DNA of 56,667 bases from an uncultured Planctomycetales bacterium (GCA_964554185.1 CAZKNJ010000011.1:1-56667), one strand, 5' to 3'. Shown: positions 1 through 54,024, counted from the stretch's first letter. Notes: generated by a model not told the origin, from the sequence alone. Numbers and translations: made by a program.

Positions 1-1539
1 CGTGAAGCCGCTGAACTGGCCCCAGTTGTCCTTGGCGCGGACTTTGTAGATGTAGTCCTCGCCCACAGTAAGGCCCGAGTCGTAGATCTTGCGGCCGGTC
101 GTGTCGGTAGTCCTCAGCAGCGAGAAGTCCACATCAGCCGGCCCCTGCCGCCAGACTTCGTAACCCGCAAGATAGTCCGAGGCGCTCGCCCCCCAGCTCA
201 CTTCAATGGAGTAGCTGTAGGGAATGCCTTCGTTCTCCGTGGCTATCGTGGCTGGCGTCGTCGGCGCCGCCGGGAAGAACGGCGTGTTGGCCGCCTCATT
301 GCTGGGATCGGACTCAGCCTGCGAGGTATTCACCGCAGTCGCGTAGTAGGTGTATTCAATGCCCGGGGGAAGCCAGTCGCCGTTGTTGTTGTCGGTGTAC
401 TGGAGCGGAACCGTCGCCTTCGGAATGGCCGCAACCTGGGTGAACTCGGTTTCGCCCTCGGCCTTCCGGTACAGCCGGTACTCCGCCAGATCAGGCTCGG
501 TGTTGGCGCTCCAGGTCAAGAGAATCCTGCCGGGGCCAATGGCCTCTTTGGCGATCGCTGCGAGGTTCGCCGGCGGATTGGGCACCTCCGGCTGCGCCAC
601 CGTCGCCGGGTCGCTGGGGATGCCCTCGGCGCCACCATTGTCGCCCGGCGCTACCGTCACCTCTTCCGTACCCGCCAACAACACCTCGGTGTACTCGTAC
701 TCCACCCGCGTGCTGCCAGCATCATCCGGCCGCATCACCGATAACGGCTCTCCCGGATTGCCCTCGTTCGGCAGCGGAGTCGCGTTGCCGGCCACATATA
801 CGTTGTAGCCCGCCAGGGAAGTGCCGAAGTGCACCGCTATCGGCGTCACATCCGCGATACCTATCGTCTCGTTGCCGTCCCCGTCCGCCAGGCCTACCGC
901 CGAGTTCTCGTCGGCAACCGCAGAACCAAAGTTCATGGCCAGCGGCGTGATGTCAGCAATCGCCACCGTCCCGTTGTTGTCGTAGTCGCCCACATTGCGC
1001 TCGTGCCACCGCAGAATATACGTCCCCGCCGTGGCAGTCTCAATCAACCGCAAGTCCGTGGGCTTGTTCTCACCTCCGCCGGGCGCAGTACTCACCGCTT
1101 TCGCCGCCGTATCCGCCCCGGCCTCGTACTTCACCCGCAACACCTCTCCACTCCCGCTAACTCCTTCCACCTCGTCAGCATGCACCTTGATTATCCCGCA
1201 CGGCACTTCCCCATGCCGCCCGGTCACCGCAAGGCTGATTACCTCCTCTTCCGCACCCAGGAAACCTCCGAACTTCACCTCCACCGGCCGGTATCCCTCC
1301 GGGTGCTTCAAGGTCACGTATACCGCCTTCAGCCCCTCTGCACCCTCCGCCTTCACAATAACCTCGGGTGCACTCGCGGTTCCCACCACCTCGGCCACCA
1401 GCTTGCCTCCGCCCATCAAATCAACATCCGCAAGCTCGAAGCCTCCAATGCTCAACGGCGCCGGCGCGCTCCGCACGCCACCGCCGCCGCAGGATACCGC
1501 CAGAAGGAGCATAAAGGCCATTAGTATCAGCCTTCTCAT
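1..1539 (-). CDS. Surface lipoprotein, paralog A (cohesin-like + dockerin-like + FN3 domains); 3' end runs off the window
   Basis: ATG at 1539 with AAGGAG RBS. Not in the ORF track (no stop in window). Same frame as the 3988 gene. My translation of 1-300 gives a second, diverged FN3-like domain (IEVSWGASASDYLAGYEVWR...YIYKVRAKDNWG). Confidence 0.9.
   Translation of the reverse strand, partial: MRRLILMAFMLLLAVSCGGGGVRSAPAPLSIGGFELADVDLMGGGKLVAEVVGTASAPEVIVKAEGAEGLKAVYVTLKHPEGYRPVEVKFGGFLGAEEEVISLAVTGRHGEVPCGIIKVHADEVEGVSGSGEVLRVKYEAGADTAAKAVSTAPGGGENKPTDLRLIETATAGTYILRWHERNVGDYDNNGTVAIADITPLAMNFGSAVADENSAVGLADGDGNETIGIADVTPIAVHFGTSLAGYNVYVAGNATPLPNEGNPGEPLSVMRPDDAGSTRVEYEYTEVLLAGTEEVTVAPGDNGGAEGIPSDPATVAQPEVPNPPANLAAIAKEAIGPGRILLTWSANTEPDLAEYRLYRKAEGETEFTQVAAIPKATVPLQYTDNNNGDWLPPGIEYTYYATAVNTSQAESDPSNEAANTPFFPAAPTTPATIATENEGIPYSYSIEVSWGASASDYLAGYEVWRQGPADVDFSLLRTTDTTGRKIYDSGLTVGEDYIYKVRAKDNWGQFSGFT
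555..1539. repeat. Direct repeat copy 1 (near-identical to 3004-3988, offset 2449)
   Basis: Shadow-frame ORF translations of both copies are identical. One synonymous mismatch seen (1501 vs 3950). Similarity continues with scattered mismatches down to about 262/2711. Confidence 0.95.
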
Positions 1540-1649
1540 GTTTCACTCCTTGTTGAAGTTTGTATGCGCATAAGTGCTGCGCTTACGCAGCGCGTTACGG
1601 GCTATTATACCTCAAGCAGCGGGAAGTCAGTCTACCAGCGGCGACCCGG

Positions 1650-1680
1650 AAAAAAGAAAGGGGCGGCATACGCCGCCCCT
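1650..1680 (-). terminator. Intrinsic terminator after the Sec-lipoprotein gene
   Basis: GGGGCGGC-N4-GCCGCCCC hairpin followed on the minus strand by TTTCTTTTTT. Confidence 0.85.
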
Positions 1681-1702
1681 TATGCAGCCTTTGTTATGCC
1701 GG

Positions 1703-3988
1703 CTAGAGCAGTTCCTCAATGTAGCCGCGCCAAGTGGATTCGTGTGATTGCACGCCGCCGTAGACCTTTCGCACTTTGCCGTCGCGGTCAATCAGGAATG
1801 TTGACGGGCGGCTGAAAGTCCCGAAGGCGGACTCGTACAGCGTTTTCACGGCTGCACCCGTGTAGAAATCCGTGAGGTCGTTGGCGGGGCTATAGCCCTG
1901 CTGGGTAATCTCGGTGACCATAGTGCTGATAGCGGGCTCGTAGGCGCCGATGTAGCAGTAGCCCTGCGACTGGTAAGAATGGTAGATGGGGATTTGCGAA
2001 GGAAACTCCTTCGAGTGCGGGAAAGTTCAGCAGTAGTCATCGAAGCTGAGGGTTATCACGCAGTGGTTATCCAGACACTGCTGGAAGGGGATGTAGGGAG
2101 CGCTCTGCTTTTTGTAGCTGGCCACAGAGAAGCTCGGTGCATACCCCAGGAAGTTGAGCGTGGTTGTACGGACACTCGTTTGGTCGTCATCGCTCGTGAC
2201 ACCGTCGTTGGCCGTCACGGTTATGTCGGCAGCGCCGCAGCCGCCGCCGGAGCACCAAGCGACCGACAGGCCGTGGTTCCCGTACGGGAAGCAGCCGGAA
2301 CTGGCGTTCCAGGTGATGGTGGCCGCCGGGTTGGTGACATCCACGGAGAAATGGGCCTCTTCGTTGGGCCCGAAGGTCGTGCCGTCAACGGTGAGCGTAA
2401 GAATCTGCACATCAACGTAGGGCGAGCAACAGGAGCAGGCATCGTTGCTGTAATCGCTCACCTGGTCGAAAGAGTCTTTGGCGCGCACCTTGTAAGTGTA
2501 GTCAACGCCCTCGGTCAGGCCGCAGTCCTTATACTCCGGGTTGGGGCCCTCGCCGATTGCGCCAATGAGCGTGAAGTCCGCCTCGCCCTCCGCCCGGCAG
2601 TAAACATCGTAGCCGCTCAAGTACTCGCCGGTGGACGCGCTCCAAGTGAGCTTGACGGTCAAGCCGTAAGGCAAGCAGTCATCCGTTGCCTCCAAGTTCG
2701 CCGGCGTTGACGGCGCCGCCGGGAAGAACGGCGTGTTGGCCGCCTCATTGCTGGGGTCGGACTCAGTTTCGGCAGTATTCACCGCAGTCGCGTAGTAGGT
2801 GTATTCAATGCCGAGGGAGAGCCAGTCGCCGTTGTTGCTGTCGGTGTATTCCAGCGGAACCGTCGCCTTCGGAATGGCCGTAACCTGGGTGAACTCGGTT
2901 TCGCCCTCGGCCTTGCGGTACAACCGGTACTCCGCCAGGTCAGGCTCGGTGTTGGCGCTCCAGCTAAGGCGAATCCTGCCGGGACCGATGGCCTGGCTGG
3001 CGTTCGCTGCGAGGTTCGCCGGCGGATTGGGCACCTCCGGCTGCGCCACCGTCGCCGGGTCGCTGGGGATGCCCTCGGCGCCACCATTGTCGCCCGGCGC
3101 TACCGTCACCTCTTCCGTACCCGCCAACAACACCTCGGTGTACTCGTACTCCACCCGCGTGCTGCCAGCATCATCCGGCCGCATCACCGATAACGGCTCT
3201 CCCGGATTGCCCTCGTTCGGCAGCGGAGTCGCGTTGCCGGCCACATATACGTTGTAGCCCGCCAGGGAAGTGCCGAAGTGCACCGCTATCGGCGTCACAT
3301 CCGCGATACCTATCGTCTCGTTGCCGTCCCCGTCCGCCAGGCCTACCGCCGAGTTCTCGTCGGCAACCGCAGAACCAAAGTTCATGGCCAGCGGCGTGAT
3401 GTCAGCAATCGCCACCGTCCCGTTGTTGTCGTAGTCGCCCACATTGCGCTCGTGCCACCGCAGAATATACGTCCCCGCCGTGGCAGTCTCAATCAACCGC
3501 AAGTCCGTGGGCTTGTTCTCACCTCCGCCGGGCGCAGTACTCACCGCTTTCGCCGCCGTATCCGCCCCGGCCTCGTACTTCACCCGCAACACCTCTCCAC
3601 TCCCGCTAACTCCTTCCACCTCGTCAGCATGCACCTTGATTATCCCGCACGGCACTTCCCCATGCCGCCCGGTCACCGCAAGGCTGATTACCTCCTCTTC
3701 CGCACCCAGGAAACCTCCGAACTTCACCTCCACCGGCCGGTATCCCTCCGGGTGCTTCAAGGTCACGTATACCGCCTTCAGCCCCTCTGCACCCTCCGCC
3801 TTCACAATAACCTCGGGTGCACTCGCGGTTCCCACCACCTCGGCCACCAGCTTGCCTCCGCCCATCAAATCAACATCCGCAAGCTCGAAGCCTCCAATGC
3901 TCAACGGCGCCGGCGCGCTCCGCACGCCACCGCCGCCGCAGGATACCGCTAGAAGGAGCATAAAGGCCATTAGTATCAGCCTTCTCAT
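1703..3988 (-). CDS. Surface lipoprotein, paralog B: cohesin-like, dockerin-like, 2x FN3, PKD/Ig-like and C-terminal thioredoxin-fold (TlpA/AhpC-TSA-like) domain with in-frame TGA (probable selenocysteine); 761 aa with readthrough
   Basis: Track ORFs 2027..3988 and 1703..1921 are in the same frame, separated only by the TGA at 2027-2029. Lipobox LLLAVSC. Paired Ca-binding repeats GDYDNNGTVAIADIT / ADGDGNETIGIADVT. Redoxin motifs APSFSV and RPSTFLIDRDGKVR lie on either side of the TGA. Confidence 0.85.
1997..2029 (-). promoter_or_regulatory. In-frame UGA plus candidate bacterial SECIS hairpin
   Basis: UGA-N13-CGAAGGA-GUU-UCCUUCG: a 7-bp stem whose apical loop G is 21 nt after the UGA. Confidence 0.75.
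3004..3988. repeat. Direct repeat copy 2 (near-identical to 555-1539)
   Basis: See copy 1. Confidence 0.95.
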
Positions 3989-4045
3989 ATCCCTCTCCTT
4001 GTTGAAGAACGAGTATCATCGGCGAAATCTATCCGCCAAGTAGCA

Positions 4046-4073
4046 ATTATAACATCCGTTACAGCAGAATCAA
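4046..4073 (-). promoter_or_regulatory. Sigma70-type promoter for paralog B
   Basis: TTGATT-N16-TATAAT with extended -10 TG. Confidence 0.6.
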
Positions 4074-4096: not shown

Positions 4097-4906
4097 TCAC
4101 AACAGCGCTTCGGTGCGCCGCCGCTGGTTGGCGAGATATATCTGCTCAAAGGCGTCGTCCATCCCAGTCTCGGTAACACGCTCCAGCAAAGCATCGGGTG
4201 AATTGTTGTTCTCGCTGAGATGTCCGAACATCACCTGGCGGGGTGGGTGACGCAGGCTCTGGACAAAGGCGAGAGCCTGCATGTTGCTCAGGTGGCCGGT
4301 GTCGCCGAGTATCCGCCGCTGCAGGAACGCAGGATAGTCGCTTGCACGCACCATGTCCGGCTCGTGGTTCGCTTCCAGCAAGATGAAGTCCGCACCGTCA
4401 CAGAGGCTGGCTTGGTGCTCGTGGGTTGTGCCCAGATCGGTGATGCAGACTATCTTGGTCCCCGCACTCTCGAAGCAGATGCTGACCGTCTCCGGTGCAT
4501 CGTGGCTCACCGGCAGCGGCGAGACATACACGCCGTTAAAGGCGTAACTTTCGCCCGGCCTGAAGGCGAACAGGCGGTGGCCCAGCCCCGAACGGCGGCT
4601 GCCGCGCGCGACCGCATTGAGCACCAGCTCCGGCAGCACAAAGCGCAGATTCGTCAGCCGATACCAAATCGGGAACGCGCTGAAGTGGTCTGAGTGGAGG
4701 TGGGTGACAAACACGGCGTCAATATCGCCGACTTCCACGCCCACGCCGCTCAGCTCGGCGGTGAGATGGCGGTGGGAGATGCCGCAGTCCACGAGAAACC
4801 GTTTCCCGCCAAGCTCAATCAGCGTGCAGTTTCCCTTGCTGCCGCTGGCGAAATTTATGACGCGCGCGCCGATGCGCGAGAGTATAACACAGCGCCTGGT
4901 GGACAC
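4097..4906 (-). CDS. Metallo-beta-lactamase-fold hydrolase (YycJ/WalJ-like); start uncertain
   Basis: ASGSKGN, THLHSDH, SHDA, LEANH and GHLSN motifs. Confidence 0.85.
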   Translation of the reverse strand: MSTRRCVILSRIGARVINFASGSKGNCTLIELGGKRFLVDCGISHRHLTAELSGVGVEVGDIDAVFVTHLHSDHFSAFPIWYRLTNLRFVLPELVLNAVARGSRRSGLGHRLFAFRPGESYAFNGVYVSPLPVSHDAPETVSICFESAGTKIVCITDLGTTHEHQASLCDGADFILLEANHEPDMVRASDYPAFLQRRILGDTGHLSNMQALAFVQSLRHPPRQVMFGHLSENNNSPDALLERVTETGMDDAFEQIYLANQRRRTEALL

Positions 4907-4947: not shown

Positions 4948-5691
4948 ATGCGAGCGCGGGTGAACATCTGGCTTGTACTGGTACCGTGGGTGCTGATAAT
5001 CATCTTCGGGGCAATCGCCCTCGCGGGAGATTACGGGCAATTCCAGCAGGACAAGAGCCAGCAGCAAAGCGACCTACTTGCGCTCCAGAAAACTCTGTCA
5101 GCCCTAAAGGACTCATGGGAGGAGCAAGGCATCACGGTGTTTGAGCAGTTCCGCGAGGCCGAAGAGAAGCGCAGCATTGAAGAGCACGTGGGCAAGCTTG
5201 AGGCGAACACGCGCGCCGCCAAAGCTGATGCGGACGCGCTGCGCCAAGCGCAATTCTTCCCGGAAGCGGTGGACGCCGCGTATGACGCATTTGCAGAGCT
5301 AGCGGAGCTCCAGGAAACCATCCAGTCAGCCTTCAACACGCAAGCGGAGCTGATTGAAGTGAGGAAGGGGCTGATGGAAACACCGGCGCGAGTGAGGTTC
5401 TACCGCGACCGTGTTATCTACTGGTCTAGCCGCGACATCATCAACTACTACTTTGCCCAGGATGCGCTGGCGCAGTCGGAGAGCCACTACTATGAGATGC
5501 AGCTTCTAGCGGAGCAGCTCGGGCAGGAGATGGACCGGTGGCGGGAGCAGTTTGATCATCAGCGGCTCGCCTGCGCCGACCGCATTGAGCAGATGGGCGA
5601 AGCAGTAGCTCATGAAGCGAAAACGGACTACTTGAGCTACCTGCTCGCCAGGCTACGCACTTTCAACCCCCGGCGGGCTGCCGGCTTCTAG
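4948..5691 (+). CDS. Hypothetical protein, N-terminal membrane anchor or signal, helical/coiled-coil body
   Basis: 247-aa ORF with hydrophobic N-terminus and Q/E/A-rich heptad-like sequence; no family recognised. Confidence 0.65.
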   Translation: MRARVNIWLVLVPWVLIIIFGAIALAGDYGQFQQDKSQQQSDLLALQKTLSALKDSWEEQGITVFEQFREAEEKRSIEEHVGKLEANTRAAKADADALRQAQFFPEAVDAAYDAFAELAELQETIQSAFNTQAELIEVRKGLMETPARVRFYRDRVIYWSSRDIINYYFAQDALAQSESHYYEMQLLAEQLGQEMDRWREQFDHQRLACADRIEQMGEAVAHEAKTDYLSYLLARLRTFNPRRAAGF

Positions 5692-7133
5692 GTGCCCTTG
5701 AGCGGCACGGTAATCGGCGGAGGCCCGGTGGCGGGCTCCGGCAAATCCTGCCCGGAAGCCGGAGATTCGCCTGTGCTCCCATCGGGCTCTTCAACGTTTG
5801 CCGGTGCCGGTGCAGCATCGGAAAGCACGAACTCCTTCATCACCGAGTAGCCGCTGCCGGTGGAGTAATGCTCAACCACCAGCAGCCGCCCGGAGGCAAA
5901 GTCCACGCCCGCCAGTTCAACGCGCTGCGCCGATAGGCTTTCAGCAAGCACCCGCTGCTTGCTCCCGTCAATTGCGGTTACGCCAAGCGTGAATGACCTC
6001 TCGCCGGTGCCTGGTTTGCGCGACAGCCAGAAAACCACCGGCGAGTCAGGCGGCATCAAGATGCTGATGTGCGGTGAGGCAAGCTGCATCAGGACAGAAG
6101 TAACCCTGGTTCCGACATCGAGCTTCTCCAGCGTCAAGCGGCCCGAGGTGTTCGGGACTACGCTGCCCTCCGACTGCACCGGTACAAATCTGCTTACAAG
6201 CATTGTAGACGGCCCAATAAAAGCAGCGATGGGATTCCAGCGCTCTTCTTCAAGCGTAATGAAATAGGGGCTGGAGAAGAGCAGCGACAGGTCGGCCACC
6301 GACTTTCCCGGCTCGCCGGAGTATATGGCGAAAACCGATTCCTCGTAGTTCCCGGTGTCGTAGTGGCGCACAACATCCAGCGCGATAGTGCAGTCGGGCG
6401 AAAGCAGCGGCTTGTAGTCAAACTCCAGTTGAGCCTCGCCTTCCGGGCTGTAGAGCGTCCAGGCACGCGGCTCGCCCACGCCGTAGTGGCCTAAGAACGG
6501 GGTGACGCCGACAATCCTGCCCGCGAGCAGCCGCCCGTCGGCAAAGGAGTCGCCGACCATCATATTCTCTTCCAGCAGCGGAGCGTCCGAGCCGTCCGTC
6601 TTGAGCAGGCGCGCCTGGAGCGTGTAGCCCACGGAGGGCTCGTGGGGAACCAGGCTCTTCTGCTCCTCTTCCTCTGCAGACGGAGACACTTGCTCCAGAA
6701 GCTTGTGGTAGATGTAGCCGCCGGACTTCGCCGCGGCGAAGTTCAGCACGAGTTCAGCGTCTTTCAGCTGGAAGGTCTGAGTGACGTCAGTGGTATTCAC
6801 GAGATACAGCGGGCCAGCTCGCTCGTCCGTCCGCTCCAGATCAAAGGGAACTGACAGAAACAGAGCGCGGCCCGATCCGCCGAAATATGCAGCTTCTTTC
6901 ACCATATTCCCGTCTGCACTGAAGAAAAGCTCGCGGCTCACCGCCGCAAATGACTCATCCAGAAAAGCCACGGGGGAAAGCGCGGGCGGCGATGCGACTT
7001 TCTCGCCAAGGTCGGCTCTTTTCTCCGGAGGTGGTTCAACCGCGGGCTTCTGCTCACGCTGAGGGCACGCCGTGACGACGGCGGTTAGCGCAAGCGCCAG
7101 AGTCCATAGACAGGTTGTCCGCAGCGCGATCAT
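5688..7133 (-). CDS. Hypothetical lipoprotein (possibly beta-propeller) with Pro-rich termini
   Basis: Lipobox-like LALTAVVTAC; start overlaps the sirtuin stop codon. Confidence 0.7.
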   Translation of the reverse strand: MIALRTTCLWTLALALTAVVTACPQREQKPAVEPPPEKRADLGEKVASPPALSPVAFLDESFAAVSRELFFSADGNMVKEAAYFGGSGRALFLSVPFDLERTDERAGPLYLVNTTDVTQTFQLKDAELVLNFAAAKSGGYIYHKLLEQVSPSAEEEEQKSLVPHEPSVGYTLQARLLKTDGSDAPLLEENMMVGDSFADGRLLAGRIVGVTPFLGHYGVGEPRAWTLYSPEGEAQLEFDYKPLLSPDCTIALDVVRHYDTGNYEESVFAIYSGEPGKSVADLSLLFSSPYFITLEEERWNPIAAFIGPSTMLVSRFVPVQSEGSVVPNTSGRLTLEKLDVGTRVTSVLMQLASPHISILMPPDSPVVFWLSRKPGTGERSFTLGVTAIDGSKQRVLAESLSAQRVELAGVDFASGRLLVVEHYSTGSGYSVMKEFVLSDAAPAPANVEEPDGSTGESPASGQDLPEPATGPPPITVPLKGT

Positions 7134-7900
7134 TCTGCGAACTCGCGTGCCCGGGACAGCAAGTCCGGAAGTATCTCCCCACTGCGCCCGTGCAATGAAA
7201 AGTCGGCGGAGTAGGTGAGTTCGGTAGGTTCCAGGTTTATCTCGATCACCATTCCCCCTGCACGTTTGGTGACGTATGGCAAACCCGCGGCGGGGTAGAC
7301 CTGCGAAGAGGTTCCCACCACAAGCATCACGTCGGCTTCACCGGCCAGTCGAAGGCTCTCCTCTATCACAAGCGGATCCAGCGACTCGCCGAACCAGACC
7401 ACGTGCGGACGCAGAATATCTCCGCAGCGCGGGCACGGTGGCGGGTACTCCGGAAGCGGCGTTGAGGGCAAGTGTGTCAGCTCAGTGGTGCACGCCTTCA
7501 AGCAGCGCGAATACCAGATGTTGCCGTGCAGCTCAACGACCGAATGGCTGCCGGCCATAGCATGCAGGCCATCAATGTTCTGAGTGATCGTGGTGAAACT
7601 GCCGCCACGCCCGGCCACCAGTCTCTCGTGCTCAGCGATAGCGAAGTGCCCGGGATTGGGCCTGGTCTGCCTGATCTGCGATCGGCGCCAGTCGTACCAC
7701 TCCCACACCTTGTGCGGATCGGCGAGGAAACCCTCAAGCGTGGCCAGGCGGGTGACATCTTCGTCCTTCCAGAAGCCGTCCTTTCCGCGGAAGGTGGGAA
7801 TGCCGCTTTCGGCGGAGATGCCTGCTCCGGTCATCGCAACCGGCCTACGCGCCCGGCCGACAATCGCAGCAATCTCGTTGAGCAGATTATCCTCAGCCAC
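7130..7900 (-). CDS. cobB: NAD-dependent protein deacylase (class III sirtuin)
   Basis: GAGISAESGIPTFRG, TQNIDGLH, HVVWFGE, Zn-finger Cys pairs, and the YxxR (WYDWRR) desuccinylase-type motif. GTG start chosen by SD spacing. Confidence 0.92.
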   Translation of the reverse strand: MAEDNLLNEIAAIVGRARRPVAMTGAGISAESGIPTFRGKDGFWKDEDVTRLATLEGFLADPHKVWEWYDWRRSQIRQTRPNPGHFAIAEHERLVAGRGGSFTTITQNIDGLHAMAGSHSVVELHGNIWYSRCLKACTTELTHLPSTPLPEYPPPCPRCGDILRPHVVWFGESLDPLVIEESLRLAGEADVMLVVGTSSQVYPAAGLPYVTKRAGGMVIEINLEPTELTYSADFSLHGRSGEILPDLLSRAREFAE

Positions 7901-8549
7901 GATGGGCATCCTCCAGCAGGTTTCGTCCCGCAACCTGCACCCGGCCATCAGCAGTTACGCATACGCGGCCCTCGGCAAACCAGTTGATGACTACCGGGTA
8001 GAGCCCGCGCTCCGCCGTCCGCACACGCTCGCCGAGGGTCTCAACCGTGTCACCCTCCAGGACCGGAACCGCCCGCTGGGCGATGATGGGGCCGCAGTCG
8101 TACACCTCGTCCACGAAGTGCACCGTGCAGCCGGTGACCTTGCAGCCCGCTTTCAGCACCGCTTCGTGCACGTGGTCGCCGTACATTCCTTTGCCGCCGA
8201 AGGAAGGAAGCAGCGCGGGATGGATGTTGATGATCCGGTGGTGGTACTCGGGAGGGAACAGGTAGAGGCTGAGAAAGCCTCCGAAGACTATGAGTTCCGG
8301 CGCGAACGCGCGCAAAGATTCGGTAACCAGCTCGGAGAACTCGCTCGTGTCCCTGTGCTTCTTCTTCGGCACTACGACGGTAGGGATAGCCTCCTCTTCG
8401 GCGAAGAGCAGGCCGCGCGCAGATTCCTTGCTGGAGAGAACACACTTGATCCGGGCGTGGCAAGAGCCGTCGGTAACACGGTCAATGAGGTTCTTGAGCG
8501 TTGTCCCCCCGCCGGAGATGAGCACAGCGATTGAGATCTCGCGCGCCAC
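7893..8549 (-). CDS. purN: Phosphoribosylglycinamide formyltransferase
   Basis: ISGGGTTL, INIHPALLPSFGG and TGCTVHFVDEVYDCGPII motifs. Confidence 0.95.
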   Translation of the reverse strand: MAREISIAVLISGGGTTLKNLIDRVTDGSCHARIKCVLSSKESARGLLFAEEEAIPTVVVPKKKHRDTSEFSELVTESLRAFAPELIVFGGFLSLYLFPPEYHHRIINIHPALLPSFGGKGMYGDHVHEAVLKAGCKVTGCTVHFVDEVYDCGPIIAQRAVPVLEGDTVETLGERVRTAERGLYPVVINWFAEGRVCVTADGRVQVAGRNLLEDAHRG

Positions 8550-8576
8550 CAGCCGATTATAGCACCGCGAATGGTG

Positions 8577-10082
8577 TCAGCCGACGTGGAAGAACTCTTC
8601 AACCAGCCGCAAGGCCATTTCGTCGTCTCGGCGCGCACGCTTCAGAATCTCACTGTCGTCAAAAGCGGCCAGCCGCTCGGCAACGGCGTCAATCATCGCC
8701 GGCGAGAACACTCCGTCCTGCTCAAAGCAGCCGCGCAGGCGCAGCAGCTCCGCCGCCGACTCTTCGCAGGAGCTCGGCAGCTTCTCCATCGTGTGCATTT
8801 GCAGCTCGTCTTTGAAGAGGTTGCCTTCCACGCGCAGCTTCTCGGCACGTTCAAGGGCTTTCGCGTCACGCATTCCGTGAAGCACCGCGAGTGCTAGCCC
8901 CGCCAGAAGCTGGTGGATATTGGCGGAGCCGTCACCCACGCGATACTCCAGCGTCTGGCGCGGCTCGGATTGCCACTGCGCAGCTTCCGGGTCCAGCGGG
9001 TTCGCCGCCGCGGCCATGCCAGCCGCCCCCACCCATCCAAGCGGCACGCGCACGAGCACCGAGCGGTTGACCATTCCCCAGCAGATGTTGGTGGGCGCCT
9101 CGTGGTGCGGCATCAGCCGCAAGTAACTCGTCGGCACCGTGTTGCCGAAGGCCGTCAGTGCGGGCGCGAGGTGGAGCATTCCTGCGTTGGCCCGCAGCGC
9201 GGTTTCGGAGAGGCTGCCGTCTTCGTTCAGCAGCACGCTACGCCCTTCCTTTGCCAGGTCAATATGGACGTGCAGGCCGGAACCCGCGTGCTGGATTCCC
9301 ACTTTAGGAGCGAAGGTCACCTCGGCGCCGTAGCCCGCGCTGAAATTGCGGGCGAGCCACTTGGCCAAGACGAGGTGATCCGCCGCCAGATCAAGCCGCT
9401 CCGGAAGGAACTCAATCTCGTGCTGCTCCATACGGAGCTTGCCCTTCGCCGCAACGTCGCCCACTTCCGCGTGACCGTACTTCACGGGCACGCCCATTCT
9501 GGCCAGCTCAACCAGCACGTCTTCGCGCAGGTGAGTCCATTTCACGAAGGGCGCGCTCTCATGGTAGTTGCGTTGCGACGCGCCGGGATAAAGCTCCTGG
9601 TCGGCCTGAAACACAACATAGAACTCAAGTTCGCTGAGGGCCTGCATATCCAGGCCGGTTGCTTCTTTGAGCTTGCGTGCGGCGTTGAGCGCGAGGTTGC
9701 CCGGAGAAGTCGCGAGAGGCGTACCGTCGGGCGAGAAGTAGGAACACATCAGGCAAAGCCCCGGCTCACTGGAAAATGGACTGAGGAATGCGGTGCGGTA
9801 GCGCGGAACCACATAGAGGTCGCTTCTGCCAGGATCAATGTGTGAGAAGAGGCTGGAGCCGTCCACCCGCTCGCCTTCGTGCAGGATGCGGTCAAGGTGC
9901 TTCTCGTCCAGAGGCACGAAAGAGAGCGTTTTCAGCCTGCCGTCGCCCCCCACATAGCAGAGGTTGAGCAGGCGAATCTCGTTCTCCCGAACCAAGCGTA
10001 TGATGTCCGCAGCGGTGAAGGAGTCCCGGTCCTTCTGAAGCTCCGATGCGAGCAGGTCAGCACAGAAACCTTCAGAACTCAT
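8577..10082 (-). CDS. glnA: Glutamine synthetase family protein
   Basis: DGSS, EFY, GHAEV, EQHEIE, GSGLHVH, EAP, NRS and LEYRVGD motifs. Start set at ATG 10082 by the AAGGAG SD. Confidence 0.9.
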   Translation of the reverse strand: MSSEGFCADLLASELQKDRDSFTAADIIRLVRENEIRLLNLCYVGGDGRLKTLSFVPLDEKHLDRILHEGERVDGSSLFSHIDPGRSDLYVVPRYRTAFLSPFSSEPGLCLMCSYFSPDGTPLATSPGNLALNAARKLKEATGLDMQALSELEFYVVFQADQELYPGASQRNYHESAPFVKWTHLREDVLVELARMGVPVKYGHAEVGDVAAKGKLRMEQHEIEFLPERLDLAADHLVLAKWLARNFSAGYGAEVTFAPKVGIQHAGSGLHVHIDLAKEGRSVLLNEDGSLSETALRANAGMLHLAPALTAFGNTVPTSYLRLMPHHEAPTNICWGMVNRSVLVRVPLGWVGAAGMAAAANPLDPEAAQWQSEPRQTLEYRVGDGSANIHQLLAGLALAVLHGMRDAKALERAEKLRVEGNLFKDELQMHTMEKLPSSCEESAAELLRLRGCFEQDGVFSPAMIDAVAERLAAFDDSEILKRARRDDEMALRLVEEFFHVG

Positions 10083-10282
10083 AATCGGCATTACTCCTTG
10101 GCAATCCCACGCGCGCCGATGCACGCCCATGGAAAGCTGCAAGATTATACCAGCAGCTTGGCGAGCCGCGCCGTGCCCGCAGAGAAGAGCCTTCAAGACT
10201 TAGGACTCGGACTCTGGGGTTGCGCGGCGAGCCAAAGAGAAGTATGATGTTTGCACCGCAAACGAAAGGAGGGTGGCTGCTA

Positions 10283-25149: not shown

Positions 25150-26697
25150 CTAGAAAACCTCTTCTGCGATTGAGTAAATCTCCACCGGCCGGTCGCTCAG
25201 TTGGTAAACACCGCTGAAGTACTTGCTGGCTTCGCGGTAGAAGAGCTGCGCGGTAACAAAGACCGAGCCGGTTACGCCGGCCGCATTCATCTCGAAGTCC
25301 TCGGTAACCGTCTCGTTGGGGCCTATGCGGTTGTCCGCAAGGACCATGTCGGTCTCCCAGTAGGGCACTTCGTCGCGGAAGTCGAAGCTGCGGCCGATAC
25401 GCTTCTCATAAGTGCGCACGTCCTCAAAGAAGACGTTGCCGTCCGCATCTTCCGCACGCAGCACCAGCACCAGCTGGTGGAACGGAAGGCCGGTGGGAAG
25501 CATATGGCCCGCGCCCGAGTTGGTGATGTCAACGGTCGCAGTAATGAAGTCCTCGCTGCGCTCGGCATCCAGCGTGAGCTCCGCCGACATGCGGAGGAAC
25601 TCAGGCGTGGTGCCACGGAAGTCGTGAACATGGGCGTTGCGGCGGTCGGGACCGTGCTTGGAAGTCGGCTGGCGGCCCAAGCCGAGCTCTTGCGTGGTGG
25701 GCATATGGCAGTCCTGGCAGGTCTTGTAGTTCGCGCCAGGCACGGAGTACTTGCTGCGCAGCCACTCGTTGTAAGTATCCTGCACGATGACGCCGTAGCC
25801 GTTCACTTCCTGGTGGCAGGGCGCGCACATGCGGGAGTCAATGAAAACCGACGAGTACCTGATCGTATGCGCCGAAGTCGGGGCTTCATCAAGTGGACCG
25901 AATTTCTGGATGCCGAAGCGGTGCTCGTAGGCCAGGCCGTAGTAGTGGTTGTAGAGCTCGGGGAACTTGACCTGGTCACGGTCGGTTGGCAGGCCCATGC
26001 GGCTGATAGTGTGACAGAAGTCGCAGCTCACGCCATCCTTCACGTAGTCGTTCAAGCGCTGCCAGTAGTTCAGCTGCTTACGAATGGCGATATCCGAGTT
26101 GGGCCATGTATCCTTGCGAACACCCAGCGTGCGATCCACCTTGCCGGAGCCGACATCTACCAAGCGCGGGATGTAGCCTTCCCCCATGGCTTTGAGGAAC
26201 TCAACCAGCGGCTTGTTGCTGCTGTTGGCGATTTCCACATTGATGGCGGGCGCGTGGCAGGAGAGGCAGTCAATCTCCTCGGGCATTATGGCGCTGGCCG
26301 GAAGCTGGTCGTCGTTGCGCAATTCGCCCAGCCGGCGCATCTCCTTCACCTTCTTCTCCTGGTAGTCGTAGAACTCCCGGTATTCCGAGGAGGCCTGCTG
26401 GTAGAACATGCCACTGAAGGAACTGCCGTGGGCGGAGTACTGCCACTGCCGGTAGTAAGTGGCATGGCACAGCGAGCAGGACTCGGAGTAGTCTAGAATC
26501 GGCACGTACGGCACGTCTTGGGTCTCGATACCGTACTTGGCCATATTCTGCTCAAAGAGATCGATCCAAGGACGCTTCCATTCTTTCGGCCGCGCCTCTC
26601 CCCGCTCCTGAGCCAGAGCGCTCGCAGCAAACGCTACTAGGAGAGAAATCAGCAGGAGGACCGGAACGACCCCCCGTATGAATTTACTCCCTTTCAT
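25150..26697 (-). CDS. Exported multiheme c-type cytochrome (5 CxxCH) with C-terminal Ig-like domain
   Basis: CSLCH, CLSCH, CDFCH, CAPCH, CQDCH; GHMLPTG motif; Sec-type signal ending ASALAQ. Confidence 0.88.
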   Translation of the reverse strand: MKGSKFIRGVVPVLLLISLLVAFAASALAQERGEARPKEWKRPWIDLFEQNMAKYGIETQDVPYVPILDYSESCSLCHATYYRQWQYSAHGSSFSGMFYQQASSEYREFYDYQEKKVKEMRRLGELRNDDQLPASAIMPEEIDCLSCHAPAINVEIANSSNKPLVEFLKAMGEGYIPRLVDVGSGKVDRTLGVRKDTWPNSDIAIRKQLNYWQRLNDYVKDGVSCDFCHTISRMGLPTDRDQVKFPELYNHYYGLAYEHRFGIQKFGPLDEAPTSAHTIRYSSVFIDSRMCAPCHQEVNGYGVIVQDTYNEWLRSKYSVPGANYKTCQDCHMPTTQELGLGRQPTSKHGPDRRNAHVHDFRGTTPEFLRMSAELTLDAERSEDFITATVDITNSGAGHMLPTGLPFHQLVLVLRAEDADGNVFFEDVRTYEKRIGRSFDFRDEVPYWETDMVLADNRIGPNETVTEDFEMNAAGVTGSVFVTAQLFYREASKYFSGVYQLSDRPVEIYSIAEEVF

Positions 26698-26735
26698 CAG
26701 TCGCTCCAAAAGGTGGATTACACTTGAGTTGGGTC

Positions 26736-53821: not shown

Positions 53822-53894
53822 TGGAGGTGAACGGATTCGAACCGATGACCTTCTGCGTGCAAAGCAGATGCTCTGCCAACTGAGCTACACCCCC
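53822..53894 (-). tRNA. tRNA-Ala(UGC)
   Basis: Cloverleaf with G3:U70 and anticodon loop TT-TGC-AC; CCA not encoded. Confidence 0.96.
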
Positions 53895-53950
53895 GCAGTC
53901 CTATTCTAACACACGCCGTTGAGGGATAAGCCGTGCAGAAAGCGATTAAG

Positions 53951-54024
53951 TGGGTCGTCCAGGACTCGAACCTGGGACCTCATCCTTATCAGGGATGCGC
54001 TCTAACCACCTGAGCTAACGACCC
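53951..54024 (-). tRNA. tRNA-Ile(GAU)
   Basis: Cloverleaf with anticodon arm CATCC-CT-GAT-AA-GGATG; CCA not encoded. Confidence 0.96.

Follow-up and report, generated by a model that had tools for sequence, protein, structure and literature searches.

Analysis of a 56,667-nucleotide (nt) stretch of DNA from an uncultured Planctomycetales bacterium (GCA_964554185.1 CAZKNJ010000011.1:1-56667; hereafter, the window) indicated that two tandem genes at its start, paralogs A and B, have near-identical 5' parts joined to markedly different 3' parts. We consider it highly probable that these genes belong to an array encoding lipoproteins that end in a selenocysteine (Sec)-containing redoxin domain, and that A and B are ancient paralogs whose 5' parts have been overwritten by gene conversion. 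The two proteins have a common architecture, comprising a lipoprotein signal peptide, a cohesin-fold domain, a dockerin-like pair of motifs, an Ig-like domain, two FN3 domains (FN3-1 and FN3-2), a PKD-like domain and a TlpA/ResA-like domain. Coordinates are window positions, and all features of the array are on the minus strand (Table 1).

The near-identical 5' parts of paralogs A and B

Comparison of the two genes at a fixed offset of 2449 nt showed that 555-1539 in A and 3004-3988 in B, each 985 bp in length, differ by a sole mismatch at 1501/3950, which corresponds to nt 39 of both coding sequences (CDSs). The same comparison by blastn gave 99.898% identity over 985 nt and identified no third copy of the block within the 56.7-kb window. 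The longest identical run between A and B was 946 nt, and when the 179 differences over the 1539 aligned positions were shuffled 10,000 times the longest run had a mean of 46 nt and a maximum of 116. Beyond the block, identity fell to ~89% between 251-554 and 2700-3003, with 33 differences in CDS nt 986-1290, and to ~50-60% further downstream, below window position 250. The only upstream stretch shared by the two genes was the 13-bp CTTCAACAAGGAG at 1546-1558 and 3995-4007.

This pattern was as the original prediction for this DNA had described it, namely two blocks of ~985 bp with one mismatch, scattered substitutions in FN3-1 followed by a clearly different FN3-2, and upstream regions sharing only a 13-bp ribosome-binding site (RBS), with a TATAAT for each gene and a terminator between them. 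The comparison of synonymous divergence (dS) along both copies, which had been proposed as a check, revealed a stepwise rise from 0 (amino acids (aa) 1-328) to 0.18-0.27 (aa 329-430) and then to 0.7-1.2 beyond.

Near-identity of this kind might also arise as an assembly artefact, if the assembler collapsed the shared part of one gene, or of two diverged genes, or threaded it into a chimera. The DNA appears to come from a metagenome-type assembly, and short-read contigs of relatives are broken inside the repeat or close to it; of the two contigs representing a sister strain, L001 reaches just 117 nt into A and L002 has a length of only 2475 nt. In addition, the two copies of the corresponding tract in the related contig L010 (1288 nt counted from the ATG, and a further 21 nt upstream) are exactly 100% identical, which is how a collapsed graph node would look. 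Assemblies made independently from different samples (L001, L002, L003 and L010) speak against an artefact, as they have the module joined to B-specific or A-specific flanks. The sister-strain copies were assembled separately, with 10 differences in nt 1-985 (mostly in nt 812-957), yet have six strain-specific substitutions in common: at sites 228, 546, 717, 721, 723 and 851 the window has one base in both of its paralogs and the sister strain has another in both of its own. Nt 39 distinguishes A from B in each of the two strains, and the identity gradient tracks codon structure and synonymous sites, as the stepwise dS indicated. We consider an artefact very unlikely, and see no serious reason to doubt that two near-identical 5' halves exist.

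Probable selenocysteine in the redoxin domains

Automatic gene calling split paralog B into a 653-aa open reading frame (ORF; 2027-3988) and a separate 72-aa ORF. The exact sequence of the 653-aa ORF was not on record, and the 99%-identical proteins P0001 and P0004 were used in its place. The B frame past the TGA at 2029-2027 is open for 107 further codons, to the TAG at 1705-1703, and the frame past the UGA was open in 13/13 of the UGA-containing copies. In the Cys paralogs L003_2, L004_2, P0015, P0016 and P0032, the first Cys of a CxxC motif was exactly at the UGA position.

The UGA of B is followed by a hairpin with a GUU loop, a 7-bp stem, a UGA-to-loop spacing of 20 nt and a free energy of -8.1 kcal/mol. 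The published limits for a bacterial selenocysteine insertion sequence (bSECIS) are a loop of 3-9 nt with G in its opening two positions, a stem of 4-16 bp, 16-37 nt from the UGA to the loop, and a minimum free energy of -7.5 kcal/mol or lower (PMC13188914), and the B hairpin lies within all of these. Across the 13 copies, the stem had compensatory changes while the apical GAGUU was retained; 86.8% of cells were paired, 18 cells were changed on both sides, 0/500 shuffles scored as high, and controls with slid partners scored far lower. Comparison of the post-UGA segment with that of L010_B (107 codons) gave a nonsynonymous divergence (dN) of 0.099 and a dS of 1.69 (dN/dS ~0.06), indicating that the sequence after the UGA is under purifying selection. 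Because of the aligned Cys homologs, the covarying SECIS-like hairpin, the open frame and the post-UGA conservation, codon 654 of B was read as selenocysteine.

The alternative is that the UGA is a true stop, with the genes producing ~650-aa stalk proteins that lack a working redoxin and the downstream frames representing decaying remnants. Gene callers end the proteins at the UGA in all database entries of the UGA-using family, which are ~586-660 aa in length and labelled hypothetical, and the Sec machinery was not found in the sequence at hand (the window and fetched loci). We give this alternative little credence in view of the dN/dS of the post-UGA segment, the open frame in every UGA copy, the covarying hairpin and the exact alignment of Cys homologs at the UGA, and in view of Sec-containing cd02966 TlpA-like proteins being a recognised selenoprotein family (PMC13188914). 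With the UGA read as Sec, the true products of the UGA-using genes would be selenoproteins of ~700-770 aa, up to four per locus.

A profile built from the family's C-terminal domains matched ResA (4nmu, 2.7e-10), DsbE (3gl3, 4.8e-10) and TlpA (1jfu, 1e-3). Together with the Cys alignment, the hairpin and the post-UGA dN/dS, the ResA match bore out the earlier reading of B as a Sec redoxin. The Cys paralog P0016 matched Pfam AhpC-TSA at 4.6e-10 (39.9 bits vs. a cut-off of 26), and also Redoxin and Thioredoxin_8. The structure of the redoxin end was taken from P0016, in lieu of the domain of B itself. The AlphaFold2 (AF2) model of full-length P0016 was a beads-on-a-string chain ending in an alpha/beta domain, where the predicted local distance difference test (pLDDT) score was just 50-86, and a fold search with this model returned FN3 arrays alone.

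The window start truncates paralog A, whose continuation was sought in relatives. Contig L002 (JGI 3300063152) is 99.3% identical to window 1996..1 without gaps and is 479 nt longer, and in it A extends through the PKD-like domain to ...VIMINFGSTG-TGA-TYCKNELSFMNQLL (TYCKNELSF), a U-x-x-C motif. Both genes are complete in L010, a contig from a metagenome-assembled genome (MAG) whose module is 81% identical in protein; there, B is 760 aa with the site DDYC-U-SFPHSKEFP, and A is 761 aa with FGRTT-U-PGC and a full TlpA-like domain after it. The original prediction held that A and B carry different C-terminal cargo, and had named a redoxin-type end of A beforehand as an outcome that would count against it. 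As L002 has such an end, and A in L002 and L010 has the same kind of domain as B, that claim was not supported. The tails of A and B are, as judged from these relatives, different versions of one domain set, with a C-U pair and Pro at +3 in the B type and U-x-x-C in the A type.

The B-type copies were Cys-rich in the unconverted half (1706-2698 in the window), with 14 Cys/Sec residues in window B and 8-14 across B types. This half of window B contains a conserved A-C-S-C-C-S-P motif, plus a C-x-x-x-x-C ahead of the active site. The A types (L002, L010, L003 and L006) had 2-3 Cys and the U-x-x-C pair only. The Cys richness of B may reflect a thiol relay or the binding of a metal or metalloid.

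Probable gene conversion between ancient paralogs

The nearest relatives of A and B differed along the length of the genes. Over aa 431-513, window A was 80% identical to L010_A, 54-57% identical to last-position copies elsewhere and 36% identical to window B, which was itself 89% identical to L009_B and ~50-56% identical to first-position copies. In this segment, the nearest relative was L010_A for window A and L009_B for window B, each in 1000/1000 bootstraps, whereas over aa 151-328 A and B were mutual nearest neighbours, also in 1000/1000. These values derive from a nearest-neighbour column bootstrap and not from neighbour-joining trees. Between species, the dS of the 5' region was 0.27-0.51, vs. 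0 within the window, and the homogenisation would therefore be later than speciation.

Tracts with other boundaries were present in the relatives. In addition to the L010 tract, copies 2 and 3 of L003 had a 1164-nt tract from aa 146, L006 and L004 had short converted patches, and B of the sister strain had A-type alleles over nt 1215-1233 (19 nt); no conversion tract was detected between the two L008 copies. The promoters were unconverted, as each upstream region resembled its positional ortholog in L010. The G+C content of third codon positions (GC3), inspected as a sign of biased gene conversion, gave no clear signal. Because of the segment-wise incongruence, the stepwise dS, the strain-level concerted sites and the independent tracts in relatives, we interpret the 5' identity as the product of ongoing, repeated gene conversion between ancient tandem paralogs.

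The original prediction had allowed for either recent duplication or ongoing conversion, and of these two conversion was supported and recent duplication of the whole gene was not, as the C-terminal halves have separate orthologs. A recent whole-gene duplication, after which the C-terminal half diverged very fast or was replaced, would fit the dS of 0 in the 5' half too, and copy number among relatives does vary from 2 to 4. The C-terminal halves, with a dS of 0.7-1.2, each have a positional ortholog in other species (1000/1000), the upstream promoters are positionally orthologous between species, and the nested tracts and strain-level concerted sites require repeated exchange. We regard such a duplication as extremely unlikely.

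Two further observations concern divergence between species. The between-species dS (L009/L010) of the converted 5' module, 0.27 and 0.51, was about half that of the remainder of the gene (0.59 and 1.30), for which synonymous constraint, conversion dynamics and inter-lineage recombination are candidate explanations. In the A tail (PKD-like domain plus redoxin, aa 514 to the end), L002_A was nearest to L003_3 and L010_A (7950-10232) was nearest to L006_4; that is, the L002_A and L010_A tails are not orthologous although their FN3-2 domains are 80% identical. This mosaicism is a sign of another breakpoint around codon 514-530, and suggests differential retention or loss of array members, or unequal crossing-over.

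The N-terminal head and its wider family

The N-terminus of B, MRR-LILMAFMLLLAVS-C17-GGGG, fits the PROSITE-type lipobox [LIVMFWSTAG](2)-[LIVMFYSTAGCQ]-[AGS]-C by eye and has the features of a lipoprotein signal, and its S-C-G-G was kept in all family members. From this we infer that A and B are extracytoplasmic, lipid-anchored proteins. Pfam searches with the N-terminal segments of the window protein returned no match even at E<=10. The AF2 model of the N-terminal third had a pLDDT of 85 overall and of 90+ over aa 34-140, a beta-sandwich for which Foldseek identified 2w1n (1.6e-5), 2xdh (probability 1.0, root-mean-square deviation 3.0 over 99 columns) and many cellulosomal cohesins. The model indicates that the head contains a cohesin-type jelly-roll beta-sandwich. 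The helical segment has two D-x-D-x-N-G-x-[VI]-x-x-x-D loops with a helix after each, and a profile comparison with EF-hand pairs gave ~1e-6; this EF-hand-like loop pair appears dockerin-like and is putatively Ca-binding.

A search with the 312-aa head identified 1775 cluster representatives among 1.84 billion, 911 of them at E<=1e-10. The matching proteins were 270-1576 aa long, with nearly all of the matches falling at residues ~25-340, and the examples of head-bearing proteins that were looked at start with a lipobox. The remainder of 58 sampled head-bearing proteins contained fn3 (23), PKD (10), PQQ-type propellers (3), redoxin (3), CotH, cadherin-like and other domains. Pfam Cohesin was reached by 2 of these 58 relatives and Dockerin_1 by 3, the Dockerin_1 matches being counted irrespective of position. 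One MAG had ~19 head-bearing loci among the 80 loci kept. The original prediction also envisaged a modular anchor family with the redoxin as one cargo, and this stood for the wider family, whose C-termini are varied, but not between A and B. That >900 protein clusters carry this cohesin/dockerin-like head suggests a surface-assembly module as yet unstudied; we found nothing specific in the literature on non-cellulosomal cohesins combined with lipoproteins.

Programmed surface variation, with a constant anchor and exchangeable C-terminal cassettes (antigenic or phase variation), would suit tandem surface-protein genes with a constant 5' and a variable 3' part, an A tail type that differs between close species (L002_A resembling L003_3, and L010_A resembling L006_4) and an N-terminal module common to many genes, but is scarcely credible here, given that both genes are complete with a promoter-like site, RBS and terminator each, that purifying selection acts on the tails, which are retained as orthologs, that the locus has no invertible elements, silent cassettes or recombinase genes, and that what varies is the homogenisation boundary and not the expressed tail.

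A model for the array

We propose that RecA-type recombination between the direct repeats maintains the gene conversion described above, in that non-reciprocal homologous recombination between direct copies 2449 bp apart would overwrite the 5' part of one with that of the other. The latest tract would comprise CDS nt 40-985, and an older tract would have reached ~nt 1290. Conversion into the 3' half would not be retained, with selection acting against tracts that erase either active-site type, and both U-x-x-C (A) and C-U-x-x-P (B) would persist because of this. A and B are presumed to be selenol/thiol oxidoreductases held off the membrane on a stalk of five beta-sandwich domains, and the cohesin/dockerin-like head may mediate Ca-dependent protein-protein assembly. 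Identical heads would let A and B dock to the same partners, and neutral homogenisation accounts for identical heads equally as well as selection for the same partners would.

Several observations weigh against this interpretation. First, neither selA, selB, selD nor tRNA-Sec was identified in the 56.7-kb window or the fetched loci. Second, the redoxin domain of B alone was below the Pfam (E=0.12) and NCBIfam (ResA, 18 bits) cut-offs, the NCBIfam scan having been run with C in place of U, and its site, C-U-T-F-P, has no resolving Cys at +3 and departs from the C/U-x-x-C pattern, which the A-type sites do have (U-T-Y-C in L002 and U-P-G-C in L010). Third, for the redoxin end of window A we extrapolate from a contig of 99.3% identity and a species of 81% identity. 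Fourth, Pfam Cohesin (PF00963) and Dockerin_1 (PF00404) had no match in the window protein (E<=10). Finally, an assembler that threads a collapsed repeat twice prints identical copies, and the true identity of the two blocks could therefore be somewhat lower than 99.9%.

A broader speculation, which we think rather doubtful, is that the head anchors a non-cellulosomal cohesin-dockerin network extending across the lineage, by which dozens of lipoproteins per genome (propellers, PKD arrays, CotH kinase and seleno-redoxins) would be assembled on the surface. Conversion would keep the heads of the seleno-redoxins matched, so that the U-x-x-C enzymes and the Cys-rich C-U enzymes could co-assemble in an extracellular selenium redox relay.

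The array and its surroundings

A conserved tandem array ends with A and B, and has 2-4 copies in relatives that were deposited as Planctomycetales, Lentisphaerae or 'UBP7' MAGs. There are two copies in the window, L010 and L008, three in L003 and L004, and four in L006. In every relative, the array is directly downstream of a gene with a metallo-beta-lactamase (MBL) fold, which in the window (4097-4906, minus strand) has a weak likeness to the anti-Pycsar Apyc1 family (26.5 bits vs. a cut-off of 50).

Table 1. Positions of paralogs A and B, their predicted domains, signals and putative conversion tracts in the window.
Feature	Position	Strand	Remarks
Paralog A, first 513 codons	1..1539	-	Cut by window start
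Putative recent conversion tract, A copy	555..1539	-	Differs from B only at 1501
Shared 13-bp RBS block upstream of A	1546..1558	-	Counterpart 3995-4007 upstream of B
TATAAT upstream of A	1604..1609	-	Upstream region conserved with positional ortholog in L010
Intrinsic terminator between B and A	1658..1681	-	10-bp G+C stem, then T-run
Paralog B, 761-codon gene	1703..3988	-	In-frame UGA at codon 654; TAG stop 1705-1703
TlpA/ResA-like thioredoxin-fold domain of B (predicted)	1706..2122	-	Active site D-D-Y-C-U-T-F-P
bSECIS-like hairpin	1997..2013	-	CGAAGGA-GUU-UCCUUCG; begins 13 nt after UGA
UGA read as selenocysteine, codon 654	2027..2029	-	Aligns with first Cys of CxxC in Cys paralogs
PKD-like Ig domain of B	2123..2398	-	Pfam PKD E=0.004, below cut-off; beta-sandwich in homolog model
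FN3-2 of B	2399..2698	-	Pfam fn3 E=2e-8; paralog-specific, 36% aa identity to A
Putative older conversion zone in B, in part decayed (FN3-1, codons 329-430)	2700..3003	-	~89% identical to 251-554 in A; dS 0.18-0.27
Putative recent conversion tract, B copy, codons 1-328	3004..3988	-	Signal peptide, cohesin-fold, dockerin-like and Ig-like domains
Ig-like linker domain	3044..3259	-	From structure models
Dockerin-like pair of putative Ca-binding loop-helix motifs	3278..3526	-	DYDNNGTVAIAD..., DGDGNETIGIAD...
Cohesin-fold beta-sandwich, ~aa 34-140 (predicted)	3569..3889	-	AF2 model pLDDT 85; Foldseek cohesins 2w1n, 2xdh
Predicted signal peptide with lipobox	3938..3988	-	MRRLILMAFMLLLAVS-C17; S-C-G-G motif conserved across family
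Sigma-70-like promoter site upstream of B	4046..4073	-	TTGATT-16-TATAAT

The leaders of the two genes contain the minus-strand hairpins GCTGCG-TAAG-CGCAGC (A, 1560-1603) and GGCGGATAGATTTCGCC (B, 4008-4045). The leaders are conserved by position between species, as judged from their L010 counterparts, and not between paralogs; with distinct leaders, A and B may be separately regulated.

Two genes of the window, a 247-aa protein with an N-terminal hydrophobic segment (4948-5691, plus strand) and a 481-aa protein that starts with the lipobox-like TAVVTAC (5688-7133, minus strand), had no Pfam or NCBIfam match and are situated between SIR2-family and MBL genes in all relatives. In L008 the first-position paralog is in two ORFs of 176 aa and 434 aa (7625-9587), representing either a frameshift/pseudogene or a sequencing error. 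Directly downstream of the array there are IS200-like Y1 transposase genes in L003 (15130-15618 and 20476-20892) and L008 (12687-13199), and in L004 and L006 a PemK-family toxin gene comes after the array. The window ends short of the region downstream of the array, and within it no mobile element was detected next to the array; likewise, no cytochrome-maturation or CcdA/DsbD genes were found near the array.

Outside the array, the window is ordinary chromosome. Its other genes include purN, a glnA-like gene, purH, deoC, folP, folE and hypD (metabolism and biosynthesis), comEC, tsaD, ftsH, an htrA-like gene, dnaK-grpE-dnaJ and clpB (DNA uptake, tRNA modification and quality control of proteins), and, for the envelope, lipopolysaccharide/O-antigen genes and a TolC-like gene. 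A tRNA-Ile(GAT)/tRNA-Ala(TGC) pair at 53822-54024 (minus strand) is typical of an rRNA operon spacer, and no rRNA match was obtained on either side of it at Rfam gathering scores. A 519-aa protein (25150-26709, minus strand) had several weak multihaem cytochrome c matches (MtrC/MtrF-like, c3 and c554), and may possibly function in extracytoplasmic electron transfer, unlinked to the array.

Comparison with known systems

Sec-containing TlpA-like proteins (cd02966; UxxC and UGC types) have already been catalogued (PMC13188914). The proteins described here resemble them in having a predicted thioredoxin-fold TlpA/ResA/DsbE-like domain with Sec first in the redox motif (U-x-x-C in the A types), a bSECIS straight after the UGA, and known Cys homologs. 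They differ in that the domain ends a 760-aa lipoprotein, after cohesin-fold, dockerin-like, Ig, two FN3 and PKD-like domains, and in that there are 2-4 tandem gene copies. In addition, paralog B has C-U-x-x-P without a Cys at +3, a motif unlisted for cd02966 in PMC13188914.

Among characterised enzymes, ResA, TlpA and CcmG(DsbE) appear to be the closest. They gave the best profile matches, have the same motif position and are membrane-tethered and extracytoplasmic, as is predicted for A and B. The scores here were far under the NCBIfam family cut-offs, and the window proteins differ in having Sec for Cys, a long stalk and no cytochrome-maturation or CcdA/DsbD genes nearby. The head, by comparison, resembles cohesin-dockerin systems (e.g., the cohesin of Archaeoglobus fulgidus, 2xdh, and the cohesin-FN3 of Clostridium perfringens GH84C, 2w1n) in its cohesin-type beta-sandwich fold and its predicted duplicated Ca-binding loop-helix segment. 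Unlike in those systems, both modules are in one polypeptide right after the lipobox, without carbohydrate-active domains, and the window protein misses the Pfam models. We found no description of a redoxin fused to a cohesin/dockerin-like lipoprotein head, of a tandem array of up to four selenoprotein genes, or of a C-U-x-x-P site.

Gene conversion between bacterial duplicates is known to produce concerted evolution, for example in tufA/tufB of Salmonella. As in that system, the paralogs here are identical within a genome and diverged between species, with abrupt tract boundaries, and the exchange would be recombination-dependent and non-reciprocal. The array differs from tufA/tufB in that the 5' domains alone are homogenised while the catalytic 3' domains are distinct, and in that tract boundaries vary by strain and species. 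The repeats here are also adjacent and direct, and therefore unequal crossing-over and changes in copy number are possible too. The array thereby offers domain-resolved concerted evolution in uncultivated bacteria, with tract boundaries that can be traced from strain to species and homogenisation that is apparently halted by selection at the catalytic half.

Finally, mammalian thioredoxin reductase has a vicinal Cys-Sec redox centre, GCUG. The adjacent Cys and Sec of B could form a selenenylsulfide as well, although the likeness is one of resemblance only, as the fold and position are different and the B pair is at the CxxC site of a predicted thioredoxin fold. Together, the C-U-x-x-P, U-x-x-C and Cys paralogs would constitute a natural series on the vicinal Cys-Sec pair in a thioredoxin fold.

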